Source of the DNA: an uncultured Dehalococcoidales bacterium | Lineage (GTDB): Bacteria; Chloroflexota; Dehalococcoidia; Lucifugimonadales; Lucifugimonadaceae | NCBI GenBank assembly: GCA_964644645.1 | Contig: CAZXXH010000002.1 | Location: forward strand, 1 to 30,551 | Reading direction: 5' to 3' | DNA: 30,551 nt | In this document: piece by piece, positions 2 to 26,495 of the stretch | Layout of the letters: the number at the start of each line of letters is the position of its first letter | Position numbering within the stretch: position 1 is the first letter of the stretch | Made by a program: the position numbers and the translations under genes | The notes under the pieces: model-generated | Database searches by the model: none | What the model was told of the DNA's origin: nothing | Seen by the model: the letters and a program-made list of their open reading frames with translations, nothing else

Positions 2-451
2 CAATCAGTTCCCAGGATGATTGGATTTCAAGCTAAGGGAGCATCTCCATTAGTTCAGAATAGACCCATTGAAAATCCCGAGACTATTGCTTCGGCTATA
101 CGTATCGGTAATCCAGCCTCTTGGAAACGCGCCGAGCGTGCCAGAGACGAATCAGGTGGGATGATCGAGGCGGTTACTGATGAGGAAATCGTTGCAGCCT
201 ATTTATCTATTGCCCGGACAGAGGGAGTGTTCTGTGAGCCAGCGTCAGCCGCCTCTGTGGCTGGGCTTCTTCGGCTTCCTGAACTTGGTGTCGATCTTAC
301 AGGTAAGACCGTGGTATGTATCATTACAGGCAACGGTTTAAAGGATCCAGGTACAGCCGAGCAGCGAGCTTCCATTAAACTCGAGTACGTTGATTCGGAT
401 ATCGATCAATTCGAAACACTTCTAGAAAACGGTAACCAATCCAAAATCTAG
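2..451 (+). CDS. thrC: Threonine synthase, C-terminal part (gene begins upstream of the window)
   Basis: Frame is open from base 2 ([11 protein letters not shown]). Motifs [30 protein letters not shown] and [12 protein letters not shown] are typical of fold-type II PLP threonine synthases. Confidence 0.88.
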
Positions 452-535: not shown

Positions 536-1519
536 ATGATCGTATGTCATAGTTCTTTTGGTGCGATTGCCGGTTCGTGGGATTCTGTGTTTGCAGAAAC
601 CGCTGACGCTTCTGTCTTTGACTCCCATTTGTGGCAGCAGATTTGGTGGCGTCATTTCGGACGCGGCGCGAGTTTAAGCATTCTGGAGTTCAACAACGGA
701 GAATTTCGAGGCATTGCTCCTTTGATGCAACTTGGTGAAACGGTTTCTTTCTTGGGTGGTAACGATCTGGTTGATTACCATGATTTTCTTTTAAGTCATA
801 ATAATCGGCGTGCTTTCTATAAGGCCGTTGTAGAGTATCTCGGTTCAGAAATTGGTATCTCCAGAATCGAACTGCTATCTATTCCCTCCACTTCACCTAC
901 CATTGAACTTCTGCCGGAGATTGCACGCAGCCAGTCTTGGACAGTTGATGTGACCGTGGAAGATGTAGCACCACGTTTGACCTTGCCCGACTCGTGGGAC
1001 GCATACCTCACACTTTTGAACAAGAAACATCGTCATGAATTGCGACGCAAGTTGAGACGCCTGGAGAATGCTGGGGAAGCGATTCACGGCGAGTTAAGCG
1101 AGACCACCGATATAGTCGCATGTCTAGACACATTTTTTTCGTTGATGCGACGTAGTTCGCCAGAGAAGGCAGTGTTCTTGACTCCGGAACGGGAAGCATT
1201 TTTCCAGTCTCTAATAATCGAGTTGTCTCAAGAAGGCTTGGTAAAGCTTGGTTACCTGGATATCGATGGCCAGCGTGTTGCAGCATCGATATATTTCGTA
1301 AACCGGGATGTAAAATTCTTGTACAACAGTGGCTACGACCCTGATTTTGCCAATTTGTCCGTGGGATTGCTCAACCACGCATACAATATCCGCCGATCAA
1401 TCGAGCAAGGCTTCAGTAGTTTTGATTTCATGCGCGGGGCAGAATCGTATAAATACCATCTGGGCGCTGCTGACGTTACCCTTCACAAAATCATAATGAT
1501 CCGTAATTCTGTTGAATAG
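536..1519 (+). CDS. GNAT-fold protein of the CelD/BcsL (BioF2-like, Acetyltransf_6) family
   Basis: 327 aa. Shows FLGGNDLVDYHDFL, the basic helix KKHRHELRRKLRRL, YNSGYDP...SVG and the C-terminal FDFMRGAESYKYHLGA, which I recognise as hallmarks of this family. Confidence 0.8.
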   Translation: MIVCHSSFGAIAGSWDSVFAETADASVFDSHLWQQIWWRHFGRGASLSILEFNNGEFRGIAPLMQLGETVSFLGGNDLVDYHDFLLSHNNRRAFYKAVVEYLGSEIGISRIELLSIPSTSPTIELLPEIARSQSWTVDVTVEDVAPRLTLPDSWDAYLTLLNKKHRHELRRKLRRLENAGEAIHGELSETTDIVACLDTFFSLMRRSSPEKAVFLTPEREAFFQSLIIELSQEGLVKLGYLDIDGQRVAASIYFVNRDVKFLYNSGYDPDFANLSVGLLNHAYNIRRSIEQGFSSFDFMRGAESYKYHLGAADVTLHKIIMIRNSVE

Positions 1520-1602
1520 GTGTCTGTTATCTCACCATTTTTTGGGATCATCAGCCTTATTTTTATTGTGAGATCATTGAGGAATACTGCGGAGCCAAGA
1601 GT

Positions 1603-2714
1603 TTGCGAATAGCGGTTCTGAGTGTTCACGGTTGTCCGCTTTCCAGAGGTGGCAGGAAAGACGCGGGCGGTATGAACGTTTATGTTTTAGAGACATCCCA
1701 GCGGTTCGCGGAGCGCGGTATGAAGGTGGATGTTTTTGTGCGCCATCATGACGTTTCAGACCCACTGATAGTAACCATTGGACAGCAAGCTCGTGTAGTT
1801 CATTTGCCTGTAGGGTCCCCATCTGATGATAAGCAGGATCTCTTTGTCCATATTCCGGACTTTGTGAACGCTGTCGAAGAATTTAGGCGATCTGAAGAAG
1901 TCACGTATGACCTAGTGGTAAGTCATTATTGGCTTTCTGGACTCGCTGGTCTGGATTTGTCAGCAGAATGGGATGTACCTCACGTTACCAGTTTCCACAC
2001 CCTTGCCGAAGTGAAGCTTAGGGCGAGGCCAGGGGAGCGCGAGGCTCCAGAGCGGTTGATCAGTGAAAGACAGATTGCACGTGGAGTCGACCGCATTGTG
2101 GTCTGGTCCCAGAATGAGCAGCGTTCCCTGACCAATTTGTACGGAGCTTACGCTTCAAAAGTGGCGATTATTCCTCCTGGTGTAGATACCAGTAGATTTA
2201 TTCCGATGGACTCTCTTGAAAGTCGTCAGAAACTGGGATTGGGGTTGGGTAGGAACATCCTGTATGTAGGGCGACTAGATAAGCTCAAGGGACTTGACAT
2301 CTTATTGCGAGCGGTCGCCCGCTTGGAAGATATGCCAGATGTTAGGTTGTTGATTGTGGGAGGTACTGTAGGAGATCTTCTGATGTATGTGTACTCCCGT
2401 CACATTATGAGAGCTTTGGATTTGCCGCACTTGAGGCCGCTGCCTGCGAAAAGCCGGTTGTAGCATCCAACGTTGGTGGGCTCCCTTCTGTCGTATTGAG
2501 TGGTGAGACAGGATACTTAATTTCCTGGCGATGCCCTGGCCCGTTCGCGACCTGTCTCGAGTTGTTGCTAGAGAACGATTATTTGCGGCGAAGCTTGGGC
2601 AGGGCAGCGAGGGAACACGCGACAACGCTCACCTGGGATGTTTCAGTCGATGCTCTGATGGTCCTGTATGAATCTCTTGTTTCTGATAGGTTGTCCTCGT
2701 TAACGGTTGCCTGA
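1603..2714 (+). pseudogene. mshA: MshA-like GT-B glycosyltransferase (D-inositol-3-phosphate glycosyltransferase type), interrupted by an internal deletion and frameshift near 2376-2381
   Basis: TTG start with GGAG at 1591-1594. Motifs HGCPL...DAGGMNVY, SHYWLSG, FHTLAEVK, IPPGVD and YVGRLDKLKG run to LIVGGTVGD at 2376. The protein then continues in another frame from 2379: SDVCVLPSHYESFGFAALEAAACEKPVVASNVGGL...GETGYLI, ending at the stop at 2714. Confidence 0.8.
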
Positions 2715-2721
2715 GCTACAT

Positions 2722-3645
2722 TTATATTCGCAACTCGTACCAGATGATTTTAGACACGCGTTGAAAGCCGAATTTGCTGTATAGACTGAGGGCCGGTTCG
2801 TTCTCAGAGTCAACTTCAAGCTCAATGTTATGAGCACCACGCTGAGCCAGATTCCGAATAGCGGCGGATACTACTTGTCGCCCCTGTCCTTGTACCCGAT
2901 GGTCTGGTCTGACTCCGGTCTTTGAGATCTCCCCGTCGCATACTTGTTCGCTAGGCGGCATAGCGGTCCAAGCATAAGCGACAAACTCATCTTCTACCGC
3001 TAAAAAAACAACTCCTTCTGGTCCATAGACCGGCAAGTCAAATTTCTTTCTTACTTCCTCCACGTTATTTGGAGAGAATCCCCAACTGTCTGAGAAGGCC
3101 AGGTTTTGGAGATCGGTCAGTAACTCCATGTCAGTATCTGGATAGAATGGCTGAACTTTTACCCGGGGTTGAAACTGGTGGTAAGCCATAAAAAGAGTAT
3201 TAGCATTTGTTACAGTCGTTCGCATACGCCAGTAGTTTCGGACTGGCCGCATACCTGATGCTGAAAGAAATGCAGCAGTGGCTGGATCACGCACATGTTC
3301 GGGGACATGTAACTTTTTTACTCCAATGGTCTTGGAGTAGTCTGAGACCATATTGAATAACGCTGACGCTACCCCAGTTCGCCGGTTTGATGGCTCGACG
3401 TAGATCCACAGTACGGCCCTATGGATATTTATCTCAAGGTCAATTTTCGCATAGGCGATGAGTTGCCCGTTTTTTTCGGCCAGCAGAACGTTCTTGGCGG
3501 GATCAGAGCGCGGCTGATGCAACTCTGCCGTCAGGCGTGATCTCATTCGATCTGTCTGTCGTGGGGTTGTTTTGTCGTCCGGGTAAGCTAGCTTGAGGAG
3601 TGCTTGTAAATCGTGCCAGACGAAGGGCCGTATAGAGATGTTCAC
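2722..3645 (-). CDS. mshD: Tandem-GNAT acetyltransferase, mycothiol synthase (MshD)-like
   Basis: 307 aa with two GNAT domains (VEPSNRRTGVASAL; GVRPDHRVQGQG...ELEVDSENEPALSLYSKFGF) and LQNLAFSDSWGF at the position of the MshD NxAF motif. Convergent with mshA, 7 bp between the stops. Confidence 0.6.
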   Translation of the reverse strand: MNISIRPFVWHDLQALLKLAYPDDKTTPRQTDRMRSRLTAELHQPRSDPAKNVLLAEKNGQLIAYAKIDLEINIHRAVLWIYVEPSNRRTGVASALFNMVSDYSKTIGVKKLHVPEHVRDPATAAFLSASGMRPVRNYWRMRTTVTNANTLFMAYHQFQPRVKVQPFYPDTDMELLTDLQNLAFSDSWGFSPNNVEEVRKKFDLPVYGPEGVVFLAVEDEFVAYAWTAMPPSEQVCDGEISKTGVRPDHRVQGQGRQVVSAAIRNLAQRGAHNIELEVDSENEPALSLYSKFGFQRVSKIIWYELRI

Positions 3646-3777
3646 ATGGGTGGTGGTTTAGAGCAGGTACGATTGGGTCGATCGGAAGGGGTTCTCTAAG
3701 GTTGGGTCTGTGTTACAGTCGGCAGCGAGTCTAGCATAACCACCTCATATTTTAGCTCGATCGTTATCTCAGTACCG

Positions 3778-3807
3778 TTGCCCATATTCTGAAGTTCGTG
3801 CTAACCT
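3778..3807 (+). promoter_or_regulatory. Putative sigma70-type promoter of the ilv-leu operon
   Basis: TTGCCC (3778-3783), 18-bp spacer, extended -10 TGcTAACCT (3799-3807), about 18 nt upstream of T-box stem I. Confidence 0.5.
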
Positions 3808-3824
3808 CGGTGATGTCTGTGAAA

Positions 3825-4107
3825 ACGCTACGACGGGGAGTAGTACTGGACGGATTCGGCATTAGAGAATCGGCGATGGTGGGAAGCCGAAGCCTGAATC
3901 CCATGGGAACTCGCCCCTGAGCGGTCTGCCCGATCAGTGGCTTGCGCGCGATGGAATGTGAAGTAATCTGGCGCGCGACAGCTCTACTAAGGCTAGAACG
4001 TTTTGCCTCGTTACGGCACTGAGTGGCTTGGCCGTTTCGACGGTCGGCAATGAAGGTGGTACCGCGGGACTAAGCGAGTCTCGTCCTTTGGGGGCGGGAC
4101 TTTTTTT
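3825..4107 (+). ncRNA. T-box riboswitch leader, leucine-specific (specifier CUC)
   Basis: Stem I with K-turn-type base (CGCTACGACGGGG / CCCCTGAGCG), loop-E AGTA (3839-3845) and GAA (3907-3909), AG bulge AGAGA (3864-3868), terminal loop GGTGGGA (3878-3884) and specifier CTC (3910-3912). Stem II has an S-turn and stem III a TTCG loop (4030-4045). T-box sequence AAGGTGGTACCGCGGGAC (4053-4070) forms the antiterminator with GTCTCGTCCTT. Confidence 0.95.
4077..4107 (+). terminator. Intrinsic terminator of the T-box leader
   Basis: AGTCTCGTCC-TTTG-GGGCGGGACT 10-bp stem followed by a T run. Its left arm is shared with the antiterminator. Confidence 0.92.
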
Positions 4108-4172
4108 GTTTATTGAGATGCCGCAGCTCTGTGGTAGTGGGTTGGGTTGGATCTCACTAGGACGGTGATGAT

Positions 4173-5867
4173 ATGGCAAAGGTTGAAAAGACAGGCGGTC
4201 AGATACTGTGCGAAGCTCTTGTGCGTGAAGGCGTAGAGGTTGTTTTTGGCGTGCCCGGTGGAGCCATACTACCTCTTTACGGCACACTCTCCCAATATCC
4301 ACAACTGCGACACGTGTTAGTTCGTCATGAGCAGGGTGCATCGCATGCCGCTGACGGTTACGCGAGAGCATCGGGACGGGTAGGCGTTGCGTTGGCAACA
4401 TCAGGTCCGGGAGCCACTAATCTGATCACAGGCCTAGCGACTGCCATGATGGATTCATCACCGGTTGTGGCGATTACTGGACAGGTGGCACGCTCCACGA
4501 TTGGTCGCGATGCGTTCCAGGAGACGGATATTACAGGCGCAACGTTACCAGTGACTAAGCACAATTACCTAGTAATGAACGCGGCCGATGTGGCCCGCAC
4601 GGTGCGTGAGGCTTTTCATATCGCCAGAACAGGACGGCCTGGTCCGGTATTGGTGGATGTGCCACGCGATGTGTTCCAAGAAACTACGATATTTGATGAA
4701 GACAGTTGGGAAGAACCACTGAGCCTCCCGGGTTACCATCCTCCGTCCACTGCAGTTCTGGCGGATGTGGAGCGAGCCGCCTCACTTATTAATTCGGCAA
4801 AACGACCGGTCATTCTAGCCGGCCATGGAGTTATCATTTCCAGGGCCTACGATGAGTTGAAAGAGCTAGCTGAAAAAGCACAGATCCCGGTAGTTGCAAC
4901 ATTACTTGGTATAAGTTCATTTCCAGAGGATCATGTGCTAAGCCAGAAATTCCCGGGTATGCATGGTGTGGCTTGGGCGAGCATTGCCTTGGATGAAGCC
5001 GACCTTATCATTGCGATAGGTAGTCGCTTTGATGATCGTATCACTGGGGATACCAAGCGATTTGCAACGAGATCTAAGAAGGTACATATTGAGATAGACC
5101 CTGCAGAAATCAACAAAAATATTTGGGTAGATGCTCCTGTGGTCGGCAATGTTAAGGATGTACTAGGCCAGCTGAACCCACTGATTAAGCGCACGACGCA
5201 CACTGCATGGGTACGTCGGATGGAGCAACTCAAATCCGAGCATCCATCCCTGAACATCCGGAAAACTAATGCTCTGCTGGGTCAACATGTTATCAAGGCG
5301 CTGTGCGAGGTTACTGATGGGCGAGCCACAATTGTCACTGGTGTGGGTCAACATCAGATGTGGGCTGCCCAACACTACCGGTTCGCTAGTCCAAATACAC
5401 TCATCACTTCGGGTGGGCTTGGCACCATGGGTTTTGAAGTGCCCGCTGCCATGGGAGTTAAAATCGCGCGCCCAGATGGAATAGTGTGGTCAGTAGCTGG
5501 CGATGGTGGTTTCCAGATGACGATGTCTGAGTTGGCCACGATAGTAGAGAACGACGTGCAGGTAAAGTTCGCCATAATGAACAACAATCACTTGGGGATG
5601 ATTACGCAGTGGCAGGAGTTGTTTTATAGGAGCGATTACCAAGCAAATGCATACACTCGTAACCCAGACTTCGTTAAACTGGCGGAGGCGTTCGGCTTGA
5701 GAGGCATTAGAGTTGATCGTCAAGATCAAGTGCACGCTGCTATTCACGAGGCTAATTCTTTCCCTGGTCCAGTATTGGTCGATTTCCTAATCGAAACTGC
5801 AGAGAATGTCTATCCAATGATTCCTTCCGGTCAAAGTGTTGCGGAACTGATTGAGGAACCACTGTGA
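4173..5867 (+). CDS. ilvB: Acetolactate synthase large subunit (biosynthetic)
   Basis: VFGVPGGAIL, RHEQGASHAADGYARASG, TSGPGATN, TGVGQHQMWAAQ, SGGLGTMGF and the TPP motif GDGGFQM...NN. First gene after the T-box. Confidence 0.96.
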   Translation: MAKVEKTGGQILCEALVREGVEVVFGVPGGAILPLYGTLSQYPQLRHVLVRHEQGASHAADGYARASGRVGVALATSGPGATNLITGLATAMMDSSPVVAITGQVARSTIGRDAFQETDITGATLPVTKHNYLVMNAADVARTVREAFHIARTGRPGPVLVDVPRDVFQETTIFDEDSWEEPLSLPGYHPPSTAVLADVERAASLINSAKRPVILAGHGVIISRAYDELKELAEKAQIPVVATLLGISSFPEDHVLSQKFPGMHGVAWASIALDEADLIIAIGSRFDDRITGDTKRFATRSKKVHIEIDPAEINKNIWVDAPVVGNVKDVLGQLNPLIKRTTHTAWVRRMEQLKSEHPSLNIRKTNALLGQHVIKALCEVTDGRATIVTGVGQHQMWAAQHYRFASPNTLITSGGLGTMGFEVPAAMGVKIARPDGIVWSVAGDGGFQMTMSELATIVENDVQVKFAIMNNNHLGMITQWQELFYRSDYQANAYTRNPDFVKLAEAFGLRGIRVDRQDQVHAAIHEANSFPGPVLVDFLIETAENVYPMIPSGQSVAELIEEPL

Positions 5868-9333: not shown

Positions 9334-10743
9334 ATGCCAAAAACTCTTTTCGAAAAAATATGGGATTCACATGTCGTCAGTGAAACTGAAGACCAACCGA
9401 CGTGTCTTTATATAGATCTACACTTGGTTCACGAAGTGACGTCACCACAGGCTTTCGATGGGTTGCGCATAGCCGGAAGACCCCTGCGACGACCCAATCT
9501 CACTATCGCAACGGCTGATCACAACGTCCAGACGACTGACCGATCAAAACCGATCGAGGACGAGATATCTAGGCGCCAGGTCGAGCTGCTTACGGAAAAC
9601 TGTAAAGACTTCGGAGTAAAACTTTTTGGTATGAATAGTCCCGGGCAGGGCATCGTGCATGTTATAGGCCCGCAAATGGGTTACACGCAGCCTGGCATGA
9701 CTATCGTTTGCGGTGATAGCCACACTAGTACCCACGGCGCGTTTGGTGCACTTGCTATGGGAATTGGCACGTCTGAAGTAGAACATGTCATGGCAACACA
9801 AACGTTGTTGCAACGCAAGCCCAAAACCATGGAAATAAAAGCTGACGGTGAACTGCCCTTCGGGGTGCGTGCAAAAGACCTGATCCTTGCCATAATTGGC
9901 GCGATTGGAGTCGATGGGGCTAGTGGACACGCTGTGGAATATAGAGGCGCTGCTATAAGTGGCCTTTCGATGGAGGGCCGCATGACAGTTTGCAACATGA
10001 CAATCGAAGGTGGTGGTCGTGCGGGAATGATTGCTCCTGATGACACCACGATCGAGTACTTGGAAGGTCGAACACATGTGCCTTCAGGGAGTGCTTTTCA
10101 GCAAGCCGCAGACGCATGGTTAGAACTTGGCACCGACAAAACAGCAAATTACGACAAGACCGTAGAGATTGACGCATCCACGCTTGAACCCCACGTCACT
10201 TGGGGCACAAATCCAGGTCAAGTGATGGGGATTAGTGGGTCCGTGCCGGATCCACTAAGCTACGGTGATCCAGGAGATCAAGACAACGCGGCTAGAGCAC
10301 TTGAGTACATGGCTCTAGAGGCAGGTACTCCTATGACCGAAATCATGCTCGACAGGGTGTTCATTGGATCTTGTACTAACGCACGTATTGAAGATCTACG
10401 TGCAGCTTCTAAGGTTGTCTTAGGCCGTAGAGTTGCACCGTCTGTTAGTGCCATGGTGGTGCCAGGGTCTACTGCAGTTAAGTTGCAGGCTGAGAAAGAA
10501 GGTCTCGACACTACGTTCCGACAAGCAGGATTTGAGTGGAGAGAAGCAGGATGCTCGATGTGCTTAGGTATGAATCCGGATATCCTCATGCCTGGCGAGC
10601 GTTGTGCTTCCACATCCAATCGTAACTTCGAGGGTCGTCAGGGTAAGGGAGGTCGGACCCATTTGGTTGGTCCAGAGATGGCTGCAGCATCCGCAATCGC
10701 AGGGCGTTTCGTCGATATTCGTAAATGGGACATAGATCTTTGA
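9334..10743 (+). CDS. leuC: 3-isopropylmalate dehydratase large subunit
   Basis: [25 protein letters not shown], Fe-S cysteines in GSCTN and [21 protein letters not shown]. Confidence 0.97.
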
Positions 10744-10775
10744 ATGCGACGGGCCCCTCGGGCTCATCACTCCGC

Positions 10776-11804
10776 ATGAATAAAGATAATCGACGCCTTT
10801 CCCGACTGCAAAACAAGCCTCCTAGGCGCGCTACGGCGGGCCTGTGGGGTCGCTTTAGTGGGCGCGAGGAACTTGAGCGTGCAAAGGCGCAGCGATATGA
10901 ACCGTACGGTTACGAATCAAATAGTGTGCACCTGAAAATTCTTGTGGTCTTAATGGCACTTTGGGTTTTAATGTGTTTAGCACTCGTTATCAGCACACAG
11001 TCGACAAGTTCACTGCTAGAACGCTGGCAAACTCAAGGATTTACTCAGGCCCCACCTGGAACCATGGAACTCGAAAACATGGTCGAGTTTGCACTGATGC
11101 ACTCAGTAGACTGCGGTTCCGTCGATGCAGTGTTAAGCCGTACGTCCGGTTGTGCTCAGGTAGAGCGATTTAGCATGGAATATGAAGACGCTGTGACAAA
11201 AGATAGCCTACTTTTTGTCGGACTGATGGCGATTATGGTTGTTATTGCTTTTCCTTTCACCTGGTTTACCCACCGCGCTTCTAGAAACCTGCTGACATTA
11301 AAGTCCGAGGGCCAAAGGTTCTCGCCCGAATGGGCTGTAGGTTGGCTATTTATACCGGTTATGAACCTATTGCGCCCCGCACAAGTGTTTTTTGAGTTAT
11401 TCAAAGCTAGCGAACTAACGCAACTTACTCAAGGGATACCGAGAGACTGGCCTAACAACCCGCGCCCTGTGCTTGTGTCAGTCTGGTGGCTCAGCGTTCT
11501 GGTCGCACTGTTTTTCAGTCCATTTATTTGGGGTCGAACACTGCCCAAATCTAATATCATGGATCTTATTCAATCCACGAGCATGATGGGCTGGATGTAC
11601 CTCGTGCTGGCCATACCGGCAATAACAGCGACGGCAATGCTCTATGCTTTGCATCAAAAGCAGCAAGCGAAATTTGCGGAGGTTGGTCCCAACACCGTTA
11701 CGCCCCCTAGACCTAAGCTGGACCCGCTAGAAGAGGCACTCAGTAAACTGCGCCATGAAAAGTCCGAAAGCGAACCTCAAACAGAGGTTGATCGAGGATC
11801 ATAG
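10776..11804 (+). CDS. Polytopic membrane protein with a DUF4328-like domain (ORF track starts at 10725, overlapping leuC; ATG 10776 preferred)
   Basis: About five hydrophobic segments. WFTHRASRNL...FSPEWAVGWLFIPVMNLLRPAQVFFELFKAS matches the DUF4328 pattern as I recall it. Charged N- and C-terminal tails. Confidence 0.7.
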   Translation: MNKDNRRLSRLQNKPPRRATAGLWGRFSGREELERAKAQRYEPYGYESNSVHLKILVVLMALWVLMCLALVISTQSTSSLLERWQTQGFTQAPPGTMELENMVEFALMHSVDCGSVDAVLSRTSGCAQVERFSMEYEDAVTKDSLLFVGLMAIMVVIAFPFTWFTHRASRNLLTLKSEGQRFSPEWAVGWLFIPVMNLLRPAQVFFELFKASELTQLTQGIPRDWPNNPRPVLVSVWWLSVLVALFFSPFIWGRTLPKSNIMDLIQSTSMMGWMYLVLAIPAITATAMLYALHQKQQAKFAEVGPNTVTPPRPKLDPLEEALSKLRHEKSESEPQTEVDRGS

Positions 11805-11806
11805 AT

Positions 11807-12403
11807 ATGGAACCGTTCGTCAAACTTACAGGGCTTGTAGCTCCCCTAGATCGATCCAATGTCGATACCGACCAGATCATACCCAAGCAGTTTCTCAAAC
11901 GTATTGAGCGTACGGGTTTCGGCCAATTTGCTTTCTTCGATTGGCGGTATCTTTCAGATGGTGCCCCGAATCCTGAATTTGTTCTAAATGCAATTTGTTA
12001 TAAGAAAGCTTCCGTACTTGTCACCGGTCGTAATTTTGGATCAGGGTCGTCTCGTGAGCACGCGCCGTGGGCACTGTTAGAGTACGGTTTCCGAGCGATC
12101 ATTGCCCCGAGTTTCGCCGATATATTTCGGAACAACTGTTACCAAAATGGTATCTTGCCAGCCATTCTAGATAAGGAAGATGTGGACGATATCATGGACC
12201 GGGCTCTGAGTGGAAATGGATATTCAGCCACCGTAGATTTAGAGTCACAGACAGTGAAGGACGAGTTCGGCCTACAGGCTCATTTCGATATTGATCCGTT
12301 CCGCAAGAATTCGTTAATGAAGGGTCTAGACGACATAGGCAGGACTATGGAATTGGAGCACAAAATCACCGATTACGAGCGCAGCCATCCCGCTCGATTT
12401 TGA
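11807..12403 (+). CDS. leuD: 3-isopropylmalate dehydratase small subunit
   Basis: NVDTDQIIPKQFLK, NFGSGSSREHAPWAL, APSFADIFRNN, KGLDDIG. GAGGA at 11794-11798. Confidence 0.97.
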   Translation: MEPFVKLTGLVAPLDRSNVDTDQIIPKQFLKRIERTGFGQFAFFDWRYLSDGAPNPEFVLNAICYKKASVLVTGRNFGSGSSREHAPWALLEYGFRAIIAPSFADIFRNNCYQNGILPAILDKEDVDDIMDRALSGNGYSATVDLESQTVKDEFGLQAHFDIDPFRKNSLMKGLDDIGRTMELEHKITDYERSHPARF

Positions 12404-13731: not shown

Positions 13732-16146
13732 GTGCTGAACCCCAAATCTTACGATCTACAATCCGCTCTTCCGGATCTGACTTCACCTTTTCATTTGTCC
13801 CAGTTGAAGGGTCGTGTGGAGGTTTTCAGGGATAATTGGGGCATACCTCACGTTCGAGTTGGCTCAGAGCGGGATGCTTTTGTAGCACAAGGGTTTGTTA
13901 CTGCTCAGGACAGGCTATGGCACATGGACCTAGACCGACATAGGGCCTTGGGACGTAGAGCTGAATTTCTGGGACAAACGCGATTGCCGCGCGATCGGGT
14001 TTTGAGGCGTATGAGGATCGAACGGGCAGCGCGCGCTGATTATGAAACGTCGAGTCCTGCCGCACGAGCGATGCTCGACTCCTTCGCGGATGGGGTGAAC
14101 GCATTTATAGATTCCACTAAAACGTTGCCAATCGAGTACTCGATTCTCGGTACTTGTCCTGAATTTTGGGAACCTTGGCACGGTTTGGCGACTTACAAGA
14201 TTCGCAACATGTTGATGGGCACATACGAGGGAAAACTTTGGCGCGTTCGTGCCGCTCGGGCGCTCGGTCCAAAGAAGGCTGCCGCACTGTTCCGCGGATA
14301 CCAAACAGGTCATTTGATCACTATTCCTTCTGGCAAGGTTTTTGATGGACCGGACGAGAACTGTGTCGAAGAGTTAGTAAGAGGCGTTTCTTTGTTGGAG
14401 GAGATAGGTGCAGGTATCGAGGGTGGAGCGGACGCACTTTTTGACAGTCTTGGTCTGTCGGCGGAACTGTTTGGCACATTGTCACAGGCAGATGCAGGTA
14501 GTAATTCATGGGTGATTGCCGGAAACCGCACACATTCGGGTTTGCCGCTGGTAGCTGGGGACTCACACCGTGGGTTAGACGTACCAAACGTTTACTATCA
14601 AATTCATTTGACCTGTCCTGATTGGGCGGTAAGTGGATATTCCGTGCCCGGACTACCTGGAGCACCACACTTTAGCCACACGGAATTTGTGGGATATGGC
14701 ATGACCCATGGACAAGCCGATTATCAGGATCTGTTTGTGGAGAAATTTCGGGAACGAGAAGGGCGTCTCGAATACTTTTTCAAAGGCCGTTGGCTGGTTG
14801 CAGATGTGTCTGTGGAGGAAATTAGCAGTTTAGATGGCGGGAAAGAAAAGGTAGAGAATTTTCCTACACATCATGGAGGAGTGATAGTTGGTGAACCTCG
14901 TAAGGGGTGGGGGATTGCGTTAAGTACAACCGGTACGAACCAGGGGACACCATGGGCTGATTCCGTTTACCTGGCTCTGAGGGCTAGGTCGGCAGATGAC
15001 CTGGAACACGCGATGCGCGAGTGGACGGAGCCAGTTAACAATTTCACTTATTGTGATGTTACCGGCAATTTTGGTTATCGGTTACGGGGTAGGATACCTG
15101 TAAGGCATACCTCGAATCGTTGGTGCCCAGTTCCAGGTTGGGACGGTAAACACGAGTGGTTGGGGATGATTCCGTTTGACGATATGCCCGCTGTTCGTAA
15201 CCCGGATTCCGGTTACGTTGTGACTTGCAACCAGCGCGTTAGTGCAAGTAGTTATCCACACTATTTAGGTATTGATTTTGCTCCCGAATATCGGGCGAAA
15301 CGTATTACTGATCGTCTATATGAGCTTCCCGTAGGTGAAGCTAATGTTGCAGATATGTCAGGTATACATGGAGATCGAATATCCATTCCGGCTCGTGCGT
15401 TCGTTGACATTGTAAGATCTCTAAGCCCAGAGACCGGCTCACTAAGCGATGCACGGCAGCGCCTATGCGACTGGGAGTTTTCTATGGACCGCGGCGCTGC
15501 TGCCGCTGCGATCTACAGTGCAGCGATGACTCATTGGTTAATTGCGGTTGTTAATGGACAACTTGGAGCGTTAGCGGATGAGGCGTTATCGGCTAATGGA
15601 CGAGGAGCCGCCGTCACTGTTTCACAGATTTATACCAGGGCTGTGACAGCAATGACGAAAAGTGATAACGGACCCTTGGAGGCCGGAGGAAGCTGGGCTG
15701 ACCTAGTTGAGGAGTCTCTAATTGCGGCTGTTCGTGATCTCGAAGTTCGTTTGGTCAAAGACATGCGTAGTTGGTGTTGGGGAGATATTCACCATACACG
15801 ACCTGTCCACCCGCTCGGTCAACTGTATCCAGAATTATCCGAACTATTGAACCCCAAGCAGGTTCCAGTTGGGGGCGACCAAGATACCCCTCAGCAGGGA
15901 GGATATTCCCGTAATGATCGTTTTGTGGCTACAGGAATGTCTGTCAACCGCTATGTACACGATCCCGCAGACTGGAGTCACTCAAGATGGATTGTGCCCT
16001 TAGGTTCATCTGGTCACCCCGGTAGTCCACACTACGCTGACCAGGCGCATATGTGGGCCGCGGTTGAAACGATTCCCCAATTGTGGGACTGGGATGAAAT
16101 CGAGAGAGTTTCTGAGTCTCGACAACTTCTTGAGCCACAATCGTAA
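13732..16146 (+). CDS. Penicillin acylase family Ntn-hydrolase (peptidase S45), apparently cytoplasmic
   Basis: 804 aa. RDNWGIPHV, AQGFVTAQDRLWHMD, and beta-subunit N-terminal nucleophile SNSWVIAG (Ser codon 14500-14502). Also NFTYCDVTGNFGY, NPDSGYVVTCNQ and GSSGHPGSPHYADQ. No signal peptide evident. Confidence 0.92.
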   Translation: MLNPKSYDLQSALPDLTSPFHLSQLKGRVEVFRDNWGIPHVRVGSERDAFVAQGFVTAQDRLWHMDLDRHRALGRRAEFLGQTRLPRDRVLRRMRIERAARADYETSSPAARAMLDSFADGVNAFIDSTKTLPIEYSILGTCPEFWEPWHGLATYKIRNMLMGTYEGKLWRVRAARALGPKKAAALFRGYQTGHLITIPSGKVFDGPDENCVEELVRGVSLLEEIGAGIEGGADALFDSLGLSAELFGTLSQADAGSNSWVIAGNRTHSGLPLVAGDSHRGLDVPNVYYQIHLTCPDWAVSGYSVPGLPGAPHFSHTEFVGYGMTHGQADYQDLFVEKFREREGRLEYFFKGRWLVADVSVEEISSLDGGKEKVENFPTHHGGVIVGEPRKGWGIALSTTGTNQGTPWADSVYLALRARSADDLEHAMREWTEPVNNFTYCDVTGNFGYRLRGRIPVRHTSNRWCPVPGWDGKHEWLGMIPFDDMPAVRNPDSGYVVTCNQRVSASSYPHYLGIDFAPEYRAKRITDRLYELPVGEANVADMSGIHGDRISIPARAFVDIVRSLSPETGSLSDARQRLCDWEFSMDRGAAAAAIYSAAMTHWLIAVVNGQLGALADEALSANGRGAAVTVSQIYTRAVTAMTKSDNGPLEAGGSWADLVEESLIAAVRDLEVRLVKDMRSWCWGDIHHTRPVHPLGQLYPELSELLNPKQVPVGGDQDTPQQGGYSRNDRFVATGMSVNRYVHDPADWSHSRWIVPLGSSGHPGSPHYADQAHMWAAVETIPQLWDWDEIERVSESRQLLEPQS

Positions 16147-16213
16147 GACGCCTCCCGATAATCAATCGGATGTGTTCAAGATGGCCTGGGGATATTAACT
16201 GAAAGGAAGCAGT

Positions 16214-16696
16214 GTGAGGTTCGGCAGGTTCTTTGAAGATTTTATTGTTGGAGAGATCATCAAGCATTGGCCTGGTCGTACCATCACGGAGGCTGATAAT
16301 ACTTGGTTCTCCCTACTGACACAGAATCAGCATCCTCTTCACATAGACGACCATTATGCACAGTCTTCCACTCATTATGGACGTCGTGTAGTCAACGGAA
16401 CACTGGTGTTTGCAATCGCGGTTGGTCAGACCGTGGCTGATATTTCAGGACGTGCGATTGCCAATCTTGATTATGAGTCAATAATGCACCACGCACCTAC
16501 ATTTCACGGGGACACAATTTACACCGAGAGTACGACATTGGACGTGAGTCGCAGTTCAAAAATGGATCGTGGTGTTATACGAGTGGAAACTCGTGTAACA
16601 AACCAGCAGGGCACATTGGTTATGACCTTCAGAAGGCATGTGCTGGTGGCCATGCGATCACACGCAACACTCGGTGCGGAAACGCTTCGAGACTGA
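16214..16696 (+). CDS. MaoC-family (hot-dog fold) acyl-CoA hydratase/dehydratase
   Basis: GRFFEDF...GRTITEADNTWFSLLTQNQHPLHID carries the hydratase-2 D-x4...N-x2-P-x-H motif, plus PTFHGDTIY. GTG start with GAAAGGA upstream. Confidence 0.9.
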   Translation: MRFGRFFEDFIVGEIIKHWPGRTITEADNTWFSLLTQNQHPLHIDDHYAQSSTHYGRRVVNGTLVFAIAVGQTVADISGRAIANLDYESIMHHAPTFHGDTIYTESTTLDVSRSSKMDRGVIRVETRVTNQQGTLVMTFRRHVLVAMRSHATLGAETLRD

Positions 16697-16767
16697 ATTA
16701 CATTTCACGAGCTTTCGAATCAATAAATCCGAGTCAACCCATAAGACGTTCGTTTGAGTATTTTGAC

Positions 16768-17970
16768 ATGACTACAAACCGACCGCCTCTACACGGGGTA
16801 CGAATACTTGCAGTCTCTCAGTTTGGAGCAGGGCCGTTTGGCACTATGGCGCTTTCTGATTTGGGCGCGGAGGTGATCAAGATAGAAAATCCCGCAACCG
16901 GAGGAGATGTGGCTAGGTATGTACCGCCAAGTGCCGGAGAAGGAGATTCACTGTATTTCCAAGCTTACAATCGGGGCAAATAATCTTTGACTTTGGACTT
17001 AGACTGTGAGTCGGGGCGTTCGGTACTATTTGATCTAGCCCGAAAATCGGATGTTTTGTTTAACAATCTGCGTGGTGATCTTCCTGCCAGACTTGGCCTC
17101 CAATACGAGGTATTAAAGGGAGTCAATCCTGCGATAGTGTGTTGTTCGCTATCTGGATTCGGTCTCAACGGTCCACGGATCGCAGAATTTGGGTATGACC
17201 CATTAATGCAAGCATATGCGGGGCACATGTCGATGACCGGAGAACCTGATGGAGTCCCCACGCGTTCAGCGATTTCTTATATCGACTTCACTGCGGGTTA
17301 TGTTGCTGCGCTGGCCATAATGGTGGGTCTGTTCGACGCGCGCCGCACGGGTGTGGGACGCGATTTAGATGTGTCACTCTTCGATACAGCACTAGCAATG
17401 TTGACTCATCAAGCAGTGTGGGCCATGAATAGTGACTGGGAGCCGCGTCGTGTCGAACGATCTGCTCATCCGTCGTTAGTGCCCTCTCAAATATTCCAAA
17501 CCAGCGATGGTTGGATTGCAATTTTCTGTGGGAAGGAAAAATTCTTCAGAGCACTGGTGGATAGACTTGATTTGGGCGGTTTAGCTGACGAACCTCTTTT
17601 TTCATCATTCGATGCACGCTTCGAAAACAGACAAACATTAATCGAACAGTTGCAAGTCAAATTCATAACGGAATCGACGAGTGAGTGGATAGAGCGTTTG
17701 GGGGAAGTTGTTCCATGCGCCCCTGTGAACGATATTTATGATGCTCTATACGATAAACAGGCGCGTGCGCGTGGGTCTATATCATCTATAGATCACCCGA
17801 AATTTGGATCGATTAAACAAGTATCAGGAGTAGTACGTACGACGGGTATCCCCAACAAAATGACGCCCGGACCGGTATTGGGAGAACATACAGATGAGTT
17901 GCTTACCGGTCTACTCGGCTACCAGGAAAGTCAAGTCAAAATACTCAGGGACTCAGGCGTAATCCTCTGA
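16768..17970 (+). pseudogene. Family III (CaiB/BaiF) CoA-transferase with one in-frame TAA at 16981-16983
   Basis: ORFs 16768-16983 and 16987-17970 are in the same frame. The join reads YNRGK*SLTLDL, matching the family NRxKxS motif. PLHGVRIL...AGPF...DLGAEVIKIE, NNLR and the catalytic Asp region (SYIDFTAG) are present. Read through, the protein is 400 codons. Confidence 0.88.
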
Positions 17971-22053: not shown

Positions 22054-22593
22054 TTGAGCGCAGATGAATTGCTCGACCTAGGCTTAGCGGAGTCAATTGT
22101 GCCTGAAGCGATCGGACGGCCAGGTGAACGTAAATTCAAGATCACGGTCATTAGCCACAGAGGATCAGCAATTATATGGATGGAAAAGGAGCAATTATTT
22201 CAAGTGGCGGCTGCCCTCAAGCAATTTCTCTCTTCACGATCCGCTATCTCGAACGCTACGCATTATGTCTCACGCAATGAGGGTCCGTCGTCGGCTATCT
22301 CCGCGGAATTCAGGGTTGGTGAGATGTCGTTAAGTCATGATGCGAGGTCGGATGTCTTTACTGTGGCGGTGACTGACATAGAGTCCGAGCATGAGGGGGA
22401 CGACGAGGAAGATGCAGTAGCCGTGCAATTTAGCTTTACACGCGTCTCAGCAGATAAGATAGCGGATGTGGCGCTTGAAGTGGTGGCAGCTGGACGCAAA
22501 CCCTGCCCTTTGTGTAGTGCGCCTCAGGATCCCGAAGGCCACTTCTGCGTGCGGACGAATGGACATCGTAACTCACATATTGATGAAGTTTAA
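22054..22593 (+). CDS. DUF3090 family protein with a C-terminal CxxC...HxC metal-binding motif
   Basis: EAIGRPGERKF near the N-terminus and AGRKPCPLCSAPQDPEGHFCVRTNGH at the C-terminus. Lies directly upstream of an SCO1664-type gene, the usual pairing. Confidence 0.85.
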   Translation: MSADELLDLGLAESIVPEAIGRPGERKFKITVISHRGSAIIWMEKEQLFQVAAALKQFLSSRSAISNATHYVSRNEGPSSAISAEFRVGEMSLSHDARSDVFTVAVTDIESEHEGDDEEDAVAVQFSFTRVSADKIADVALEVVAAGRKPCPLCSAPQDPEGHFCVRTNGHRNSHIDEV

Positions 22594-22608: not shown

Positions 22609-23361
22609 TTGAAGAGAGTTTTTGGGCCAATAGTCGATCAAAAGGAAACTCTCGAATGGCTAAAGCATTGGCCGATTGCCGCGTCAGCGCTTCATCCGGG
22701 TGGTTCTAACTACGTCTTTATTGTTGAACTCCAACCGGCAAGTGGAGCACTGAAACACAACTCCATTTACGCGGTATATAAGCCTAGGACCGGGGAGAGC
22801 CCGCTCCAAGACTTTCCGCCTAGTGGGTTGTACAGGCGTGAACGTGCGGCATATCTACTCAGTACGATATTAGGTTGGCCACGCATTCCGCCAACGGTAA
22901 TTAGAACAGGCCCCCATGGTCTTGGCAGCGTCCAGCTCTACATAGAAGCGGTATCAGGTGAAAACTATTTCACGATGCGTGAACGGAACATGGAGATTTT
23001 CGAATCGATCGCAGTATTTGACACTCTTGTGCACAATGCTGATCGTAAGGGTGGTTCGTGTTTAATGGACGGAAGTGGTGCAGTATGGGCAATAGACCAT
23101 GGGTTAACCTTCAATCCATTAGCACGTGTCCGCACCGTGATGCTCGAATTTTCGGGGCGGTCTTTTTCAAAGCCATTGGTGCAATCTTTGATCGATCTAA
23201 ACAAAAAATTCCACTCTGAGGCCGGAATCGTAAATGATTTTGCCTTGTTACTTGGAGCAGACGAACTTGACGCCCTACGGAGCCGTTTGAACCGTCTTAT
23301 TGATGAACCAATCTTGCCGAGTCTAGATCCTAACGAAAATGTGCCTTGGCCGCTCCTGTGA
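22609..23361 (+). CDS. SCO1664-family protein (PI3/PI4-kinase-like fold)
   Basis: GSNYVF, AVYKPRTGESPLQDFP, RERAAYLLS, GPHGLGSVQLYI, FDTLVHNADRKGG, WAIDHGLTF, RTV and terminal PWP. Confidence 0.85.
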   Translation: MKRVFGPIVDQKETLEWLKHWPIAASALHPGGSNYVFIVELQPASGALKHNSIYAVYKPRTGESPLQDFPPSGLYRRERAAYLLSTILGWPRIPPTVIRTGPHGLGSVQLYIEAVSGENYFTMRERNMEIFESIAVFDTLVHNADRKGGSCLMDGSGAVWAIDHGLTFNPLARVRTVMLEFSGRSFSKPLVQSLIDLNKKFHSEAGIVNDFALLLGADELDALRSRLNRLIDEPILPSLDPNENVPWPLL

Positions 23362-23420: not shown

Positions 23421-24350
23421 TTACAGGCCTAGCGATTGCCTCACAATTCTAGATAGTGACCGGTTCTTAGGTCTTAGGTTTTTACTAATGAAGTTGGTAG
23501 TAAATTCAGGCCCTGAAATGACGGGCCTCAACCATGTCCTGATGTTCTTTGTGGTTTCGAAGTCGTGAACATATGGTTGTGCGAAAGTTTCGAGCTTGTG
23601 CCAACTTCCACGTGAGTCAAGAGCCAGACTAAGGCCACCTGCTTCTGACACAATTAGCGAACCAGCAGCGAAATCCCATGAATTAGCTGGTCCAGAGATC
23701 GCGTACTGCAACACCCCAGATGCAACCATGCAAAGTTCCAACGCCACGCTACCTAACGTGCGGCGGGCGCCCATGTATTGGCGTAATTCTGATCCAATTC
23801 GATACCTTTCGTGCAGGGCTGATGGTAATGCCACAATGCTGCTTGGTGATGGAGAACCGCCGTTTGTAACATTCATTACTTCTAGCTTGTTTTCCCCGTT
23901 CCAAGCTCCAGCTCCGCGTCGAGCGTGGAACACATTTCCGCCTGCGCTACCAGACAACCCTGTCCACACCGCACCGGCCATAGGCACCCCTCTGTATAGT
24001 GCTCCAACGGATATTGCGTAAATGGGTAAACCGTTGGCGAAGTTGACAGTGCCGTCGATGGGATCGATGACCCATATCCAATCAGTTGCTATGCGCTCAT
24101 CACCCTCAGGGTCTTCCTCTCCGATCACAAGATGTTCTGGAAACGAGTGATTCAAATATTCGCTGATCAATTGTTGGCTTTTTCGATCGACGTCTGTAAC
24201 TAAATCGCGCCCTGCCTGGTCTTTGGCGTTGACATTTAGATTGCCTCCAAATCGTGACGAAACGAGGTCCCCTGCTTTCCTAACTGCTTCGTGGGCAACT
24301 TGCTCGACCTGAGCAAGGTAATCTACGTTTGCTTCTATCTTTGTATCCAC
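23421..24350 (-). CDS. Inositol monophosphatase family protein (SuhB-like)
   Basis: DLVTDVDRKSQ, IGEE, WVIDPIDGTVNFANG, RTLGSVALELCMVASG and WDFAAGSLIVSEAGG are the FIG-superfamily metal and phosphate motifs. Confidence 0.9.
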   Translation of the reverse strand: MDTKIEANVDYLAQVEQVAHEAVRKAGDLVSSRFGGNLNVNAKDQAGRDLVTDVDRKSQQLISEYLNHSFPEHLVIGEEDPEGDERIATDWIWVIDPIDGTVNFANGLPIYAISVGALYRGVPMAGAVWTGLSGSAGGNVFHARRGAGAWNGENKLEVMNVTNGGSPSPSSIVALPSALHERYRIGSELRQYMGARRTLGSVALELCMVASGVLQYAISGPANSWDFAAGSLIVSEAGGLSLALDSRGSWHKLETFAQPYVHDFETTKNIRTWLRPVISGPEFTTNFISKNLRPKNRSLSRIVRQSLGL

Positions 24351-25820: not shown

Positions 25821-26420
25821 ATGTGCCGTATCTTTGGTGTAGGGGTGGACAAACAACCCAAGTCAGATTGGGAAGTGATGTCCACGTTATCGAGCGCTGA
25901 CGTCAGGCTCAACAAAGATCGGGTTGCTGCGAAGCCACATCGGCGGGCCGGGCTGGTGTACAAACCCAACGGGTCGCCGTATCTGGACAATATAGAGCGG
26001 GAACTACGCTCGGTACTATATGAGGGGATCGGTGCAACCAAGACCTCGTTCAATATAAAGGACGATCAATACGGTACGCGATGGGTCGTACTTGAGGACG
26101 GAAACTTTGATGATTTGGTTTCGTCCGTGTTTACTGTCGGTAATGCAATTGTGTCCAATGGTGGAAGCAAGGACCTATTGGCGGCCGTATTTCTATACCA
26201 TTACAAGGTGAATACGAGGGAGAAATTGGGTGCTGCTGACTCCAATGTTTATTGGATTTATACCTACCGGCGCAAGGCTTTCTATCCGTTTGTACCTTCA
26301 GGAGCACAGGAACGGGACCGACCTGCCGAGCTACATCTAGCTAAGGTGATGAAGAAAATAGGCCTACACGTCGACGAGTCTTTGGAGGACTGGTACGGTC
26401 TATGGGGCATCCCATTTTGA
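25821..26420 (+). CDS. PspA-associated protein PspAB-like
   Basis: DQYGTRWVVLEDGNFDDLV, LLAAVF, YWIYTYRRKAFYPFVP...RDRPAEL...WYGLWGIP match the PspAB pattern as I recall it. Starts 3 bp after the htpX stop. Confidence 0.7.
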   Translation: MCRIFGVGVDKQPKSDWEVMSTLSSADVRLNKDRVAAKPHRRAGLVYKPNGSPYLDNIERELRSVLYEGIGATKTSFNIKDDQYGTRWVVLEDGNFDDLVSSVFTVGNAIVSNGGSKDLLAAVFLYHYKVNTREKLGAADSNVYWIYTYRRKAFYPFVPSGAQERDRPAELHLAKVMKKIGLHVDESLEDWYGLWGIPF

Positions 26421-26495
26421 GAAATTGTATTACTCGATATATGTCAAGATACTTTTCGACGTCCGGTCCGCGGTCATGATAGGTCATCATCTCTA

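Follow-up and report, generated by a model that had tools for sequence, protein, structure and literature searches.

What small molecule does a marine member of the Chloroflexota make with a glycosyltransferase (GT) resembling MshA, the first enzyme of mycothiol synthesis, and an acetyltransferase-like protein folded like MshD, the last? The two genes lie side by side between positions 536 and 3645 of the DNA analysed here (the window), which comprises the whole of contig C2 (30.5 kb) of G000, a metagenome-assembled genome (MAG) of 1.89 Mb in 147 contigs from an uncultured Dehalococcoidales bacterium. An initial reading of the letters alone (the original prediction) described the interval as an mshA + mshD pair. 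The GT and the tandem GNAT protein are both there; however, the interval holds three genes rather than two, and a separate 327-aa gene upstream of the GT, here called Act6 (Table 1), had been left unmentioned. Our preferred reading, to which we give roughly even chances, is that a three-gene module found in many Chloroflexota and consisting of the Fem-like transferase Act6, an MshA-type GT4 and an LmbE-family deacetylase builds an N-(acetyl)aminoacyl-glucosaminyl-inositol (GlcN-inositol), with Act6 as the third enzyme and the tandem GNAT added in the taxonomic order of the window. A related inositol-glucosamine conjugate, as initially proposed, remains the best reading, though with a different third enzyme, encoded by the Fem-like gene inside the interval. 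The assignment of the host to a non-actinobacterial lineage, probably Chloroflexota, held: relatives retrieved via the Act6 protein are Dehalococcoidia, and near-identical DNA is present in many seawater metagenomes, indicating a marine member of that class.

The evidence for a new third enzyme begins with Act6 itself. In Pfam, Act6 matches PF13480 (Acetyltransf_6; 1.9e-28, 99.9 bits) and, below the cut-off, PF04339 (FemAB_like; 19.7 bits). The 23 best PDB matches of its AF2 model (pLDDT 94.6) fall at Z 17.5–22.4 and a root-mean-square deviation (rmsd) of 3.2–3.9, with a Foldseek probability of 1.0. These entries are aminoacyl-tRNA-dependent transferases (FemX, FemA, FemX_Wv, MprF, and Sbb17/Sba18), with the single exception of 2hqy, a structure without known function. 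The Sbb17/Sba18 structures are newly released, carry the title "aminoacyl-tRNA-dependent peptide synthase", and are bound to the amino sugar streptothrisamine; Orf11, which is homologous to them, is Gly-tRNA-dependent and aminoacylates a streptothrisamine-type amino-sugar intermediate (review PMC12945691). Tandem GNATs that use acetyl-CoA (including MshD and a glucosamine N-acetyltransferase) align with the same model at Z no higher than 16.6 and rmsd 4.5–6.6. The likeness of Act6 to Fem proteins is not a generic GNAT effect, because the adjacent tandem GNAT ranks acetyl-CoA enzymes first. K306 of Act6, within the motif ExYKYHLG, is invariant in 24 sequences and may correspond to the catalytic Lys305 of FemX_Wv, from which the distance to the aligned C-terminus is similar. 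Judged from the predicted structure, Act6 is probably a tRNA-dependent transferase.

The GT starts at 1603 on the plus strand and is, as described in the original prediction, a GT-B enzyme with MshA-type motifs (DAGGMNVY, SHYWLSG, and HTLAEVK) and the Pfam domains Glyco_transf_4 and Glycos_transf_1. Scored against TIGR03449 (MshA, D-inositol-3-phosphate glycosyltransferase; curated cut-off 462.5 bits), the window GT, mended across a frame break that is discussed below, reaches 313 bits, and five intact orthologs reach 360–393 bits end to end; other families give at most 156 bits for the GT and its orthologs, BshA among them with 71–124. The sites of MshA, in the numbering of the Corynebacterium glutamicum enzyme (CgMshA), comprise R231, K236, E316, F318, L320, and E324 for UDP and G23 and H133 for inositol phosphate (Ins-P; PMC12182360). 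All of these residues are kept in the ortholog L014, and all but L320 (F there) in the window GT, whose C-terminal part retains E, F, and E of the donor-site motif ESFGxxxxE. Conserved as well are K78, Y110, T134, and R154, which we take to be phosphate ligands in MshA. The claim of an mshA gene is upheld insofar as MshA is the best family by far and the site residues are kept, and falls short in that the score lies below the TIGR03449 cut-off; as a sequence-based label, "mshA-like" is sound.

In a tree of 60 GTs, those linked to Act6 interleave with those of genomes carrying canonical MshB/C/D sets, and the two therefore form one orthologous group; a division of the GTs into Act6-type and MshC-type clades was considered and rejected on the same tree. 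As the tree lacks such a split, the same GT looks to feed two alternative downstream enzymes. A GT match was found in 38 of the 41 genomes searched (G000 included), and the gene is intact in relatives. Separately, L060–L063 (G096, G274, G047, and G338) encode a second, monophyletic MshA-like paralog (308–330 bits) that is unlinked to Act6.

Act6 and the GT form a tightly conserved pair. Act6 is present in 40 of the 41 genomes, and in almost every one it immediately precedes the GT, even in a genus whose GT has diverged strongly. The two genes are neighbours in all 19 of the loci first examined and in at least 36 of the 39 relatives, and the gene order thrC-Act6-GT recurs in relatives' loci. 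Outside the window's taxonomic order, the pair extends into a co-directional operon, Act6-GT-LmbE, whose genes overlap or lie apart by only a few bases. Direct reading showed this operon at nine loci in several families, some of them in complete genomes of 1.4–1.9 Mb, and coordinates place it in at least 20 genomes. In G000, the LmbE ortholog is unlinked and lies on contig C42 (PF02585, 98.7 bits). It shares 40–41% identity over its full length with operon-encoded LmbE proteins (E 1e-53 to 1e-57), a divergence similar to that of the GT, and its best NCBIfam match is BshB1 (106.6 bits), below the equivalog cut-offs of both BshB1 and MshB; a second copy is present on contig C3. Within the class, Act6 and operon-type LmbE are both present in families f1, f19, f20, f21, f23, f24, f26, f28, and f34, and both absent from f18, f22, f25, f27, and f29–f33. 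No additional conserved operon neighbours were found: the flanks are tuf-nusG-rplKA in f19, and thrC and ilv/leu genes in the window lineage. Since these flanks vary between lineages, the unit appears self-contained. The succession of GT, deacetylase, and then transferase gives Act6 the place that belongs to MshC or BshC in the known pathways.

Two further observations concern these genes. In L085 and L086, from the complete f19 genomes G136 and G109, Act6-GT-LmbE stands directly upstream of tuf (EF-Tu)-nusG-rplK-rplA, a housekeeping setting in very small genomes. Contig C34 of G000 (L043:2132-3058, 3345-4748) encodes a second LmbE-family protein of 308 aa, whose best match is MshB at 65 bits, just upstream of a dihydrolipoyl dehydrogenase.

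The third gene of the interval converges on the GT, whose stop codon occupies 2712–2714; the GNAT open reading frame (ORF) ends at 2722, and the gap of 7 bp (2715–2721) is as initially reported. The tandem character of the protein is likewise borne out, by two Acetyltransf_1 stretches. The mshD label is not. Against TIGR03448 (MshD, mycothiol synthase; cut-off 163.1 bits), the window protein scores 89.5 bits and its orthologs 75–85 bits or nothing, as compared with 219–264 bits for the true MshD proteins of other Chloroflexota. By these scores, the tandem GNAT falls outside the MshD clade, an outcome that the original prediction had itself named as counting against it. The described MshD-like shape stands at the level of fold, though the protein is not an MshD ortholog: its AF2 model (pLDDT 89.8) matches best the uncharacterised MAB_4324 (VIA Z 30.7), with MshD (2c27) at Z 26.6 and rmsd 2.8 and 3tt2 at Z 26.0, acetyl-CoA enzymes including MshD thus standing at the top. 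The tandem GNAT was found in 31 of the 41 genomes, mostly within 4 kb of the GT, and the anticipated conservation of the GT-GNAT adjacency is seen in about 26 of the 30 relatives that have the GNAT. We regard it as a lineage-specific accessory and a candidate acetyl-CoA-dependent N-acetyltransferase for the last step.

To assess distribution across the phylum, we used a fixed set of 301 Chloroflexota genomes, in which related genomes are not independent samples; the overlap between Act6 and MshC-like genes was counted by hand. MshA-like GTs (~300–420 bits) occur in 201 of these genomes, and the same threshold among control genomes hits only C. glutamicum. An MshC-like paralog of cysteinyl-tRNA synthetase (CysRS), short (~400 aa) and scoring 370–410 bits, is found beside the full CysRS in 91 genomes, 81 of which have the GT and 11 an Act6 match (strong in seven). 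The MshA-like GT is accompanied by Act6 without an MshC-like gene in families f1, f19, f21, f36, and f40, and by an MshC-like gene without Act6 in f37, f38, f39, f44, and f46. Act6 and MshC-like genes are nearly complementary across the sample. True MshD, above the cut-off, is present in nine genomes (G066, G053, G078, and G090 of f46; G282, G215, and G306 of f73; G155 and G110 of f42), most of which also carry the MshA-like and MshC-like genes; MshB scores 190–228 bits in the five tested (f46, f73). From these sequence matches, a canonical-looking set of mycothiol genes seems to exist in part of the Chloroflexota, a set that the window lineage resembles in the GT alone.

Searches for the remaining mycothiol genes, which had been proposed as a check, gave a mixed outcome. 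Inositol-phosphate synthase (Ino1) was recovered with PF01658 at a contig edge in G000 and in 39 of the 41 genomes; a first search with PF07994 was empty in G000, and the same profile missed the control C. glutamicum, hence the use of PF01658. No MshC-like gene was found in 41 relatives, nor among the class genomes of the 301-genome sample. In G000 only the ordinary CysRS was found, and each of the 24 family members has a single CysRS-like gene; the additional match in G024 is the same gene divided between two contigs. For MshB (cut-off 224 bits) and Mca, G000 yielded only generic LmbE proteins at 53–65 bits, below the cut-off; neither BshC nor a GCS2-type ligase was found there. A disulfide reductase encoded beside the LmbE gene of contig C34 was examined as Mtr and rejected, as it is LpdA (TIGR01350, 530 bits). 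With no MshC-like gene, MshB-type matches of at most 65 bits, and no Mtr, the proposal that this lineage makes mycothiol by the known pathway is not supported. In the literature searched on Chloroflexi, Dehalococcoidia, or SAR202, only incidental annotations relating to mycothiol were found, and a description of the Act6-GT-LmbE operon was not.

Under the preferred reading, the pathway would begin with transfer of N-acetylglucosamine (GlcNAc) by the GT from UDP-GlcNAc to Ins-P supplied by Ino1, as orthology and active-site residues suggest. A phosphatase, possibly the inositol monophosphatase (IMPase)-family protein encoded in the window, might then strip the phosphate, a step that is speculative. 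LmbE, here the unlinked C42 protein, would free the glucosamine amine, as the operon structure elsewhere implies. Act6 would aminoacylate this amine, most likely from aminoacyl-tRNA, or less likely transfer an acyl group to it from acyl-CoA; its fold, its operon position, and its near-complementary distribution with MshC-like genes suggest that it takes the place of MshC or BshC. Lastly, the tandem GNAT would acetylate the new alpha-amine. The presence of an N-acetyltransferase next to Act6 is easiest to understand if the group added by Act6 brings a fresh amine, as an amino acid would. The product would be mycothiol itself only if that amino acid were cysteine.

Several observations weigh against this reading. 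Act6 has no match to PF02388 (FemAB) or PF09924 (MprF C-terminal domain), and no Fem protein in the PDB was found with it by sequence or by profile search; because the Act6 profile finds no Fem sequence there, the equivalence of K306 and FemX Lys305 is only positional. A shared Fem fold does not prove tRNA use, and no dedicated extra tRNA gene was found in G000, the sole extra being a second copy of tRNA-Thr(GGT). The GT falls short of the MshA cut-off, as do all of its orthologs in Chloroflexota (0/301 genomes exceed 462.5 bits), and the 60-GT tree was built without actinobacterial MshA and cyanobacterial sucrose-phosphate synthase (SPS) sequences. Ino1 is near-universal in the class (120/126 genomes, and 91/91 good genomes), including lineages without the module, and its presence is therefore permissive, not diagnostic of the acceptor. 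The LmbE type is widespread (245/301 genomes) and multi-copy. Ten of the 41 genomes searched lack the tandem GNAT, and it was found in 0/9 f19 genomes. Seven genomes hold a strong Act6 together with an MshC-like gene; Act6 is therefore not a strict replacement of MshC, and replacement as an absolute rule was rejected. Finally, thiol-handling enzymes were not found in G000, so that a redox-buffer role there is unsupported: the search for mtr returned nothing, the only class-I disulfide reductase being LpdA, and a search for MDMPI/DinB gave one weak DinB match.

Beside these points stand three details of the same data. In four of the seven genomes with both a strong Act6 and an MshC-like gene, the GT occurs twice, and of the two copies the one linked to Act6 resembles MshA more closely. 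Co-occurrence with Ino1, tried as a test of the GT acceptor, was discarded as uninformative for the reason just given. The presence of Ino1 in lineages that lack the module points to another core use of inositol.

A narrower form of the preferred reading would have the Fem-like enzyme, with Cys-tRNA as donor, stand in for the CysRS-derived ligase MshC, many Chloroflexota, including Dehalococcoides-like organisms with genomes of 1.4 Mb and this marine lineage, making mycothiol or a new cysteinyl-GlcN-inositol thiol by a route dependent on tRNA; we hold this tentatively, as possible and on the unlikely side. Hardly less probable, and unlikely in our estimation, is that Act6 is an acyl-CoA-dependent N-acyltransferase and that the product is an N-acyl-GlcN-inositol(-phosphate), such as a compatible solute or a precursor of an anchor like glycosylphosphatidylinositol (GPI), with no thiol or amino-acid conjugate involved. 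PF13480 carries the annotation of a GNAT acetyltransferase domain, and the source annotations of the PF13480 proteins here read "CelD/BcsL family acetyltransferase"; acetyl-CoA tandem GNATs still align to Act6 at Z 15–16.6; thiol-recycling genes were not found in G000; and PIG-A/PIG-L chemistry, in which GlcNAc-phosphatidylinositol (GlcNAc-PI) is converted to GlcN-PI and then acylated, provides a known parallel (PMC12182360). However, the structures closest to Act6 are tRNA-dependent by a clear rmsd margin, simple N-acylation would give the neighbouring MshD-fold N-acetyltransferase no amine to act on, and near-complementarity with MshC-like genes fits a role in adding an amino acid.

A further alternative concerns whether the pathway operates in this strain at all. 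The reading frame of the GT is broken, with frame 1 open to 2376, frame 0 resuming at 2379, and the split at 2377/2378. In the relative L041 (89% nucleotide identity), the GT is intact at 412 aa and is flanked by a 90%-identical Act6 and a convergent GNAT of 307 aa; by comparison 106 nt are missing from the window after 2377, corresponding to ~35 codons and TIGR03449 positions 266–301. The GT could be a real pseudogene, with a 106-nt deletion that leaves the pathway inactive here: the window sequence itself contains the deletion and frameshift, and the missing segment was not found elsewhere in the MAG. This we consider improbable. L040, a contig from an independent assembly that is identical over the region but for four differences close to where it begins, stops precisely at 2377; among the Logan contigs of four seawater runs, none spans the joint 2377|2378; and a contig of 1370 nt from run X3, with 99.3% identity over 2377–3630, has 116 extra letters before 2377, the last 30 of which are homologous to the final stretch of the missing segment and bring the GT back into frame. 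Moreover, Act6 and the GNAT are intact, and the GT is retained in relatives as described above. As read from these sequences, the break is probably an assembly artefact or a non-fixed variant; because L040 ends at 2377, the Logan contigs never bridge the joint, and the run X3 contig carries the missing-segment homology, it is most likely a mis-join in the assembly and not a dead gene.

Less probable again, and in our view doubtful, is that the GT is not specific for Ins-P and glycosylates another phosphorylated acceptor, as SPS does, to yield a different amino-sugar conjugate. The shortfall of every Chloroflexota GT against the MshA cut-off would fit, as would the ranking of solved relatives, in which CgMshA comes first (277 bits) and the Thermosynechococcus SPS 6kih second (237 bits), and the universality of Ino1 in the class with or without the module. 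The acceptor side of the protein argues otherwise: the acceptor domain of the window GT by itself scores 155 bits to CgMshA (3c4q) versus 116 to the Thermosynechococcus SPS, and the positions that discriminate MshA from SPS are of MshA type (GGMN not GGQN, K not R105, HT not HS). The SPS model TIGR02472 gives only 78–107 bits for the GT and its orthologs, the presence of an LmbE partner implies that the sugar donor is N-acetylated, as it is for MshA and BshA, and the GTs are orthologous to those of genomes with true MshB and MshD.

Canonical mycothiol synthesis, with the GT as MshA, the GNAT as MshD, and MshB and MshC simply missed, is the least probable by far: MshA and MshD are the best NCBIfam matches of the two proteins, the genome is 89.7% complete, and canonical-looking MshA-like/MshB/MshC-like/MshD sets exist in some Chloroflexota families, but the idea is largely refuted by the failure to find MshC in many near-complete relatives, with no second CysRS-like gene found in the 24 family genomes and no MshC-like gene in the sampled class genomes, and it also conflicts with the low MshD score of the GNAT, the distance of LmbE from MshB in comparison with the canonical-set families, and the failure to find Mtr.

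The features of the module and of the genes considered alongside it are collected in Table 1.

Table 1. Positions of the module genes and of associated features in the window
Feature	Position	Strand	Basis and remarks
Threonine-synthase-like pyridoxal-phosphate enzyme (thrC), 3' end	2..451	+	PF00291; conserved upstream neighbour, context only
Act6, Fem-like double-GNAT transferase, 327 aa	536..1519	+	PF13480, weak PF04339; candidate GlcN-inositol amine (amino)acylating enzyme
MshA-type GT4, N-terminal part of 258 codons (acceptor domain, beginning of donor domain)	1603..2376	+	TIGR03449 profile positions 1-265
GT break point	2377..2378	+	106 nt of relatives missing, frame shifted
MshA-type GT, C-terminal 111 codons and stop, frame 0	2379..2714	+	TIGR03449 positions 302-404
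Tandem GNAT, 307 aa, MshD fold	2722..3645	-	Two Acetyltransf_1 stretches; convergent with GT
DUF3090 gene	22054-22593	+	TIGR03847 95.6 bits, below cut-off 117
SCO1664-family gene	22609-23361	+	TIGR03843 192 bits, above cut-off 172
IMPase-family gene, convergent	23421-24350	-	PF00459 180.9 bits; best match HisN 114 bits, below cut-off

The DUF3090/SCO1664 pair and the inositol monophosphatase gene that had been cited in favour of mycothiol are present in the window, with matches to TIGR03847, TIGR03843, and PF00459. Their grouping presumably resembles the neighbourhood of actinobacterial mshC; the three genes are circumstantial context for the module only. The IMPase-family protein might, speculatively, be a phosphatase of GlcNAc-Ins-P or Ins-P. 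Elsewhere in the window, a 359-aa DUF4328 membrane protein (10725–11804) is encoded between leuC (9334–10743) and leuD (11807–12403). The regions 13732–17970 and 25821–27152 contain, respectively, consecutive genes for an 804-aa penicillin-amidase-family protein, a MaoC hydratase, and a family III CoA-transferase, and genes for PspAB-family and Peptidase_C26-like proteins near htpX.

Two observations relate to tRNA and CysRS genes more broadly. G000 has 36 tRNA genes, including one tRNA-SeC and a single tRNA-Cys. In several other families of the same taxonomic order, an ORF at L042:707-2896 (-) (G028:C1), with similar ORFs in G027, G031, G034, G035, and G037–G040, encodes a second CysRS (TIGR00435, 423 bits, above the cut-off) fused to a C-terminal GT2 domain (~730–800 aa in all), the normal CysRS also being present; this protein is an unusual fusion of an aminoacyl-tRNA synthetase and a glycosyltransferase.

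Placed beside known systems, the module is closest in logic to the actinobacterial mycothiol pathway (MshA, MshA2, MshB, MshC, MshD), in which a sugar is attached and deacetylated, a group is added to the amine, and the product is acetylated. Both have an MshA-type first enzyme, an LmbE-family partner, an inositol-phosphate synthase and, in the window, an MshD-fold GNAT beside the GT. The module differs in that no MshC-type CysRS paralog was found, a Fem-like double GNAT standing in its operon place; in having a GT, deacetylase, and GNAT that all score below equivalog cut-offs; and in that Mtr and Mca were not found. Bacillithiol synthesis (BshA, BshB, BshC) has the same A-B-C scheme of three steps, with a GT4 and an LmbE deacetylase as its basis, and the C42 LmbE finds its best match in BshB1. 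The module GT, however, is far nearer to MshA than to BshA (313–393 versus 71–124 bits), with an acceptor site of the Ins-P type where that of BshA is of the malate type, and BshC was not found. BshC is itself mechanistically unresolved.

Among enzymes of the Fem/MprF type, the streptothricin enzymes Orf11/Sba18/Sbb17 are of particular relevance. They share the double-GNAT fold with Act6, are among its closest solved structures (Z 20–22) and, under the proposed model, share a free amino-sugar amine as acceptor. In contrast to the Fem/MprF proteins, Act6 is a PF13480 protein without a detectable sequence match to them, and where the streptothricin enzymes belong to an antibiotic cluster, Act6 occupies a housekeeping-like operon of small genomes. 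Initiation of the GPI anchor also combines an MshA-related GT4 (PIG-A) with a PIG-L-family deacetylase, followed by acyl transfer (PMC12182360). It differs in that its acceptor is membrane phosphatidylinositol and the inositol is acylated; membrane-associated features were not seen in the module proteins.

To our knowledge, mycothiol-type thiols are held to be a hallmark of Actinobacteria, and we know of no identified thiols in Chloroflexota, including the Dehalococcoides and Dehalogenimonas used in bioremediation and the abundant marine Dehalococcoidia. Over a third of the sampled Chloroflexota genomes have the Fem-like/MshA-type GT/LmbE module, and separate families carry a canonical-looking mshA-D set. 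Automatic "MshA" and "MshD" labels in such genomes do not imply a mycothiol pathway. If the Fem-like enzyme is tRNA-dependent, it would represent a case from primary metabolism of aminoacyl-tRNA being used to decorate an amino sugar, and an independent solution to the step performed by MshC and BshC. Should the Cys-tRNA reading prove true, it would mean that a pathway to a low-molecular-weight thiol has undergone non-orthologous displacement and that mycothiol-type thiols also occur outside the Actinobacteria.

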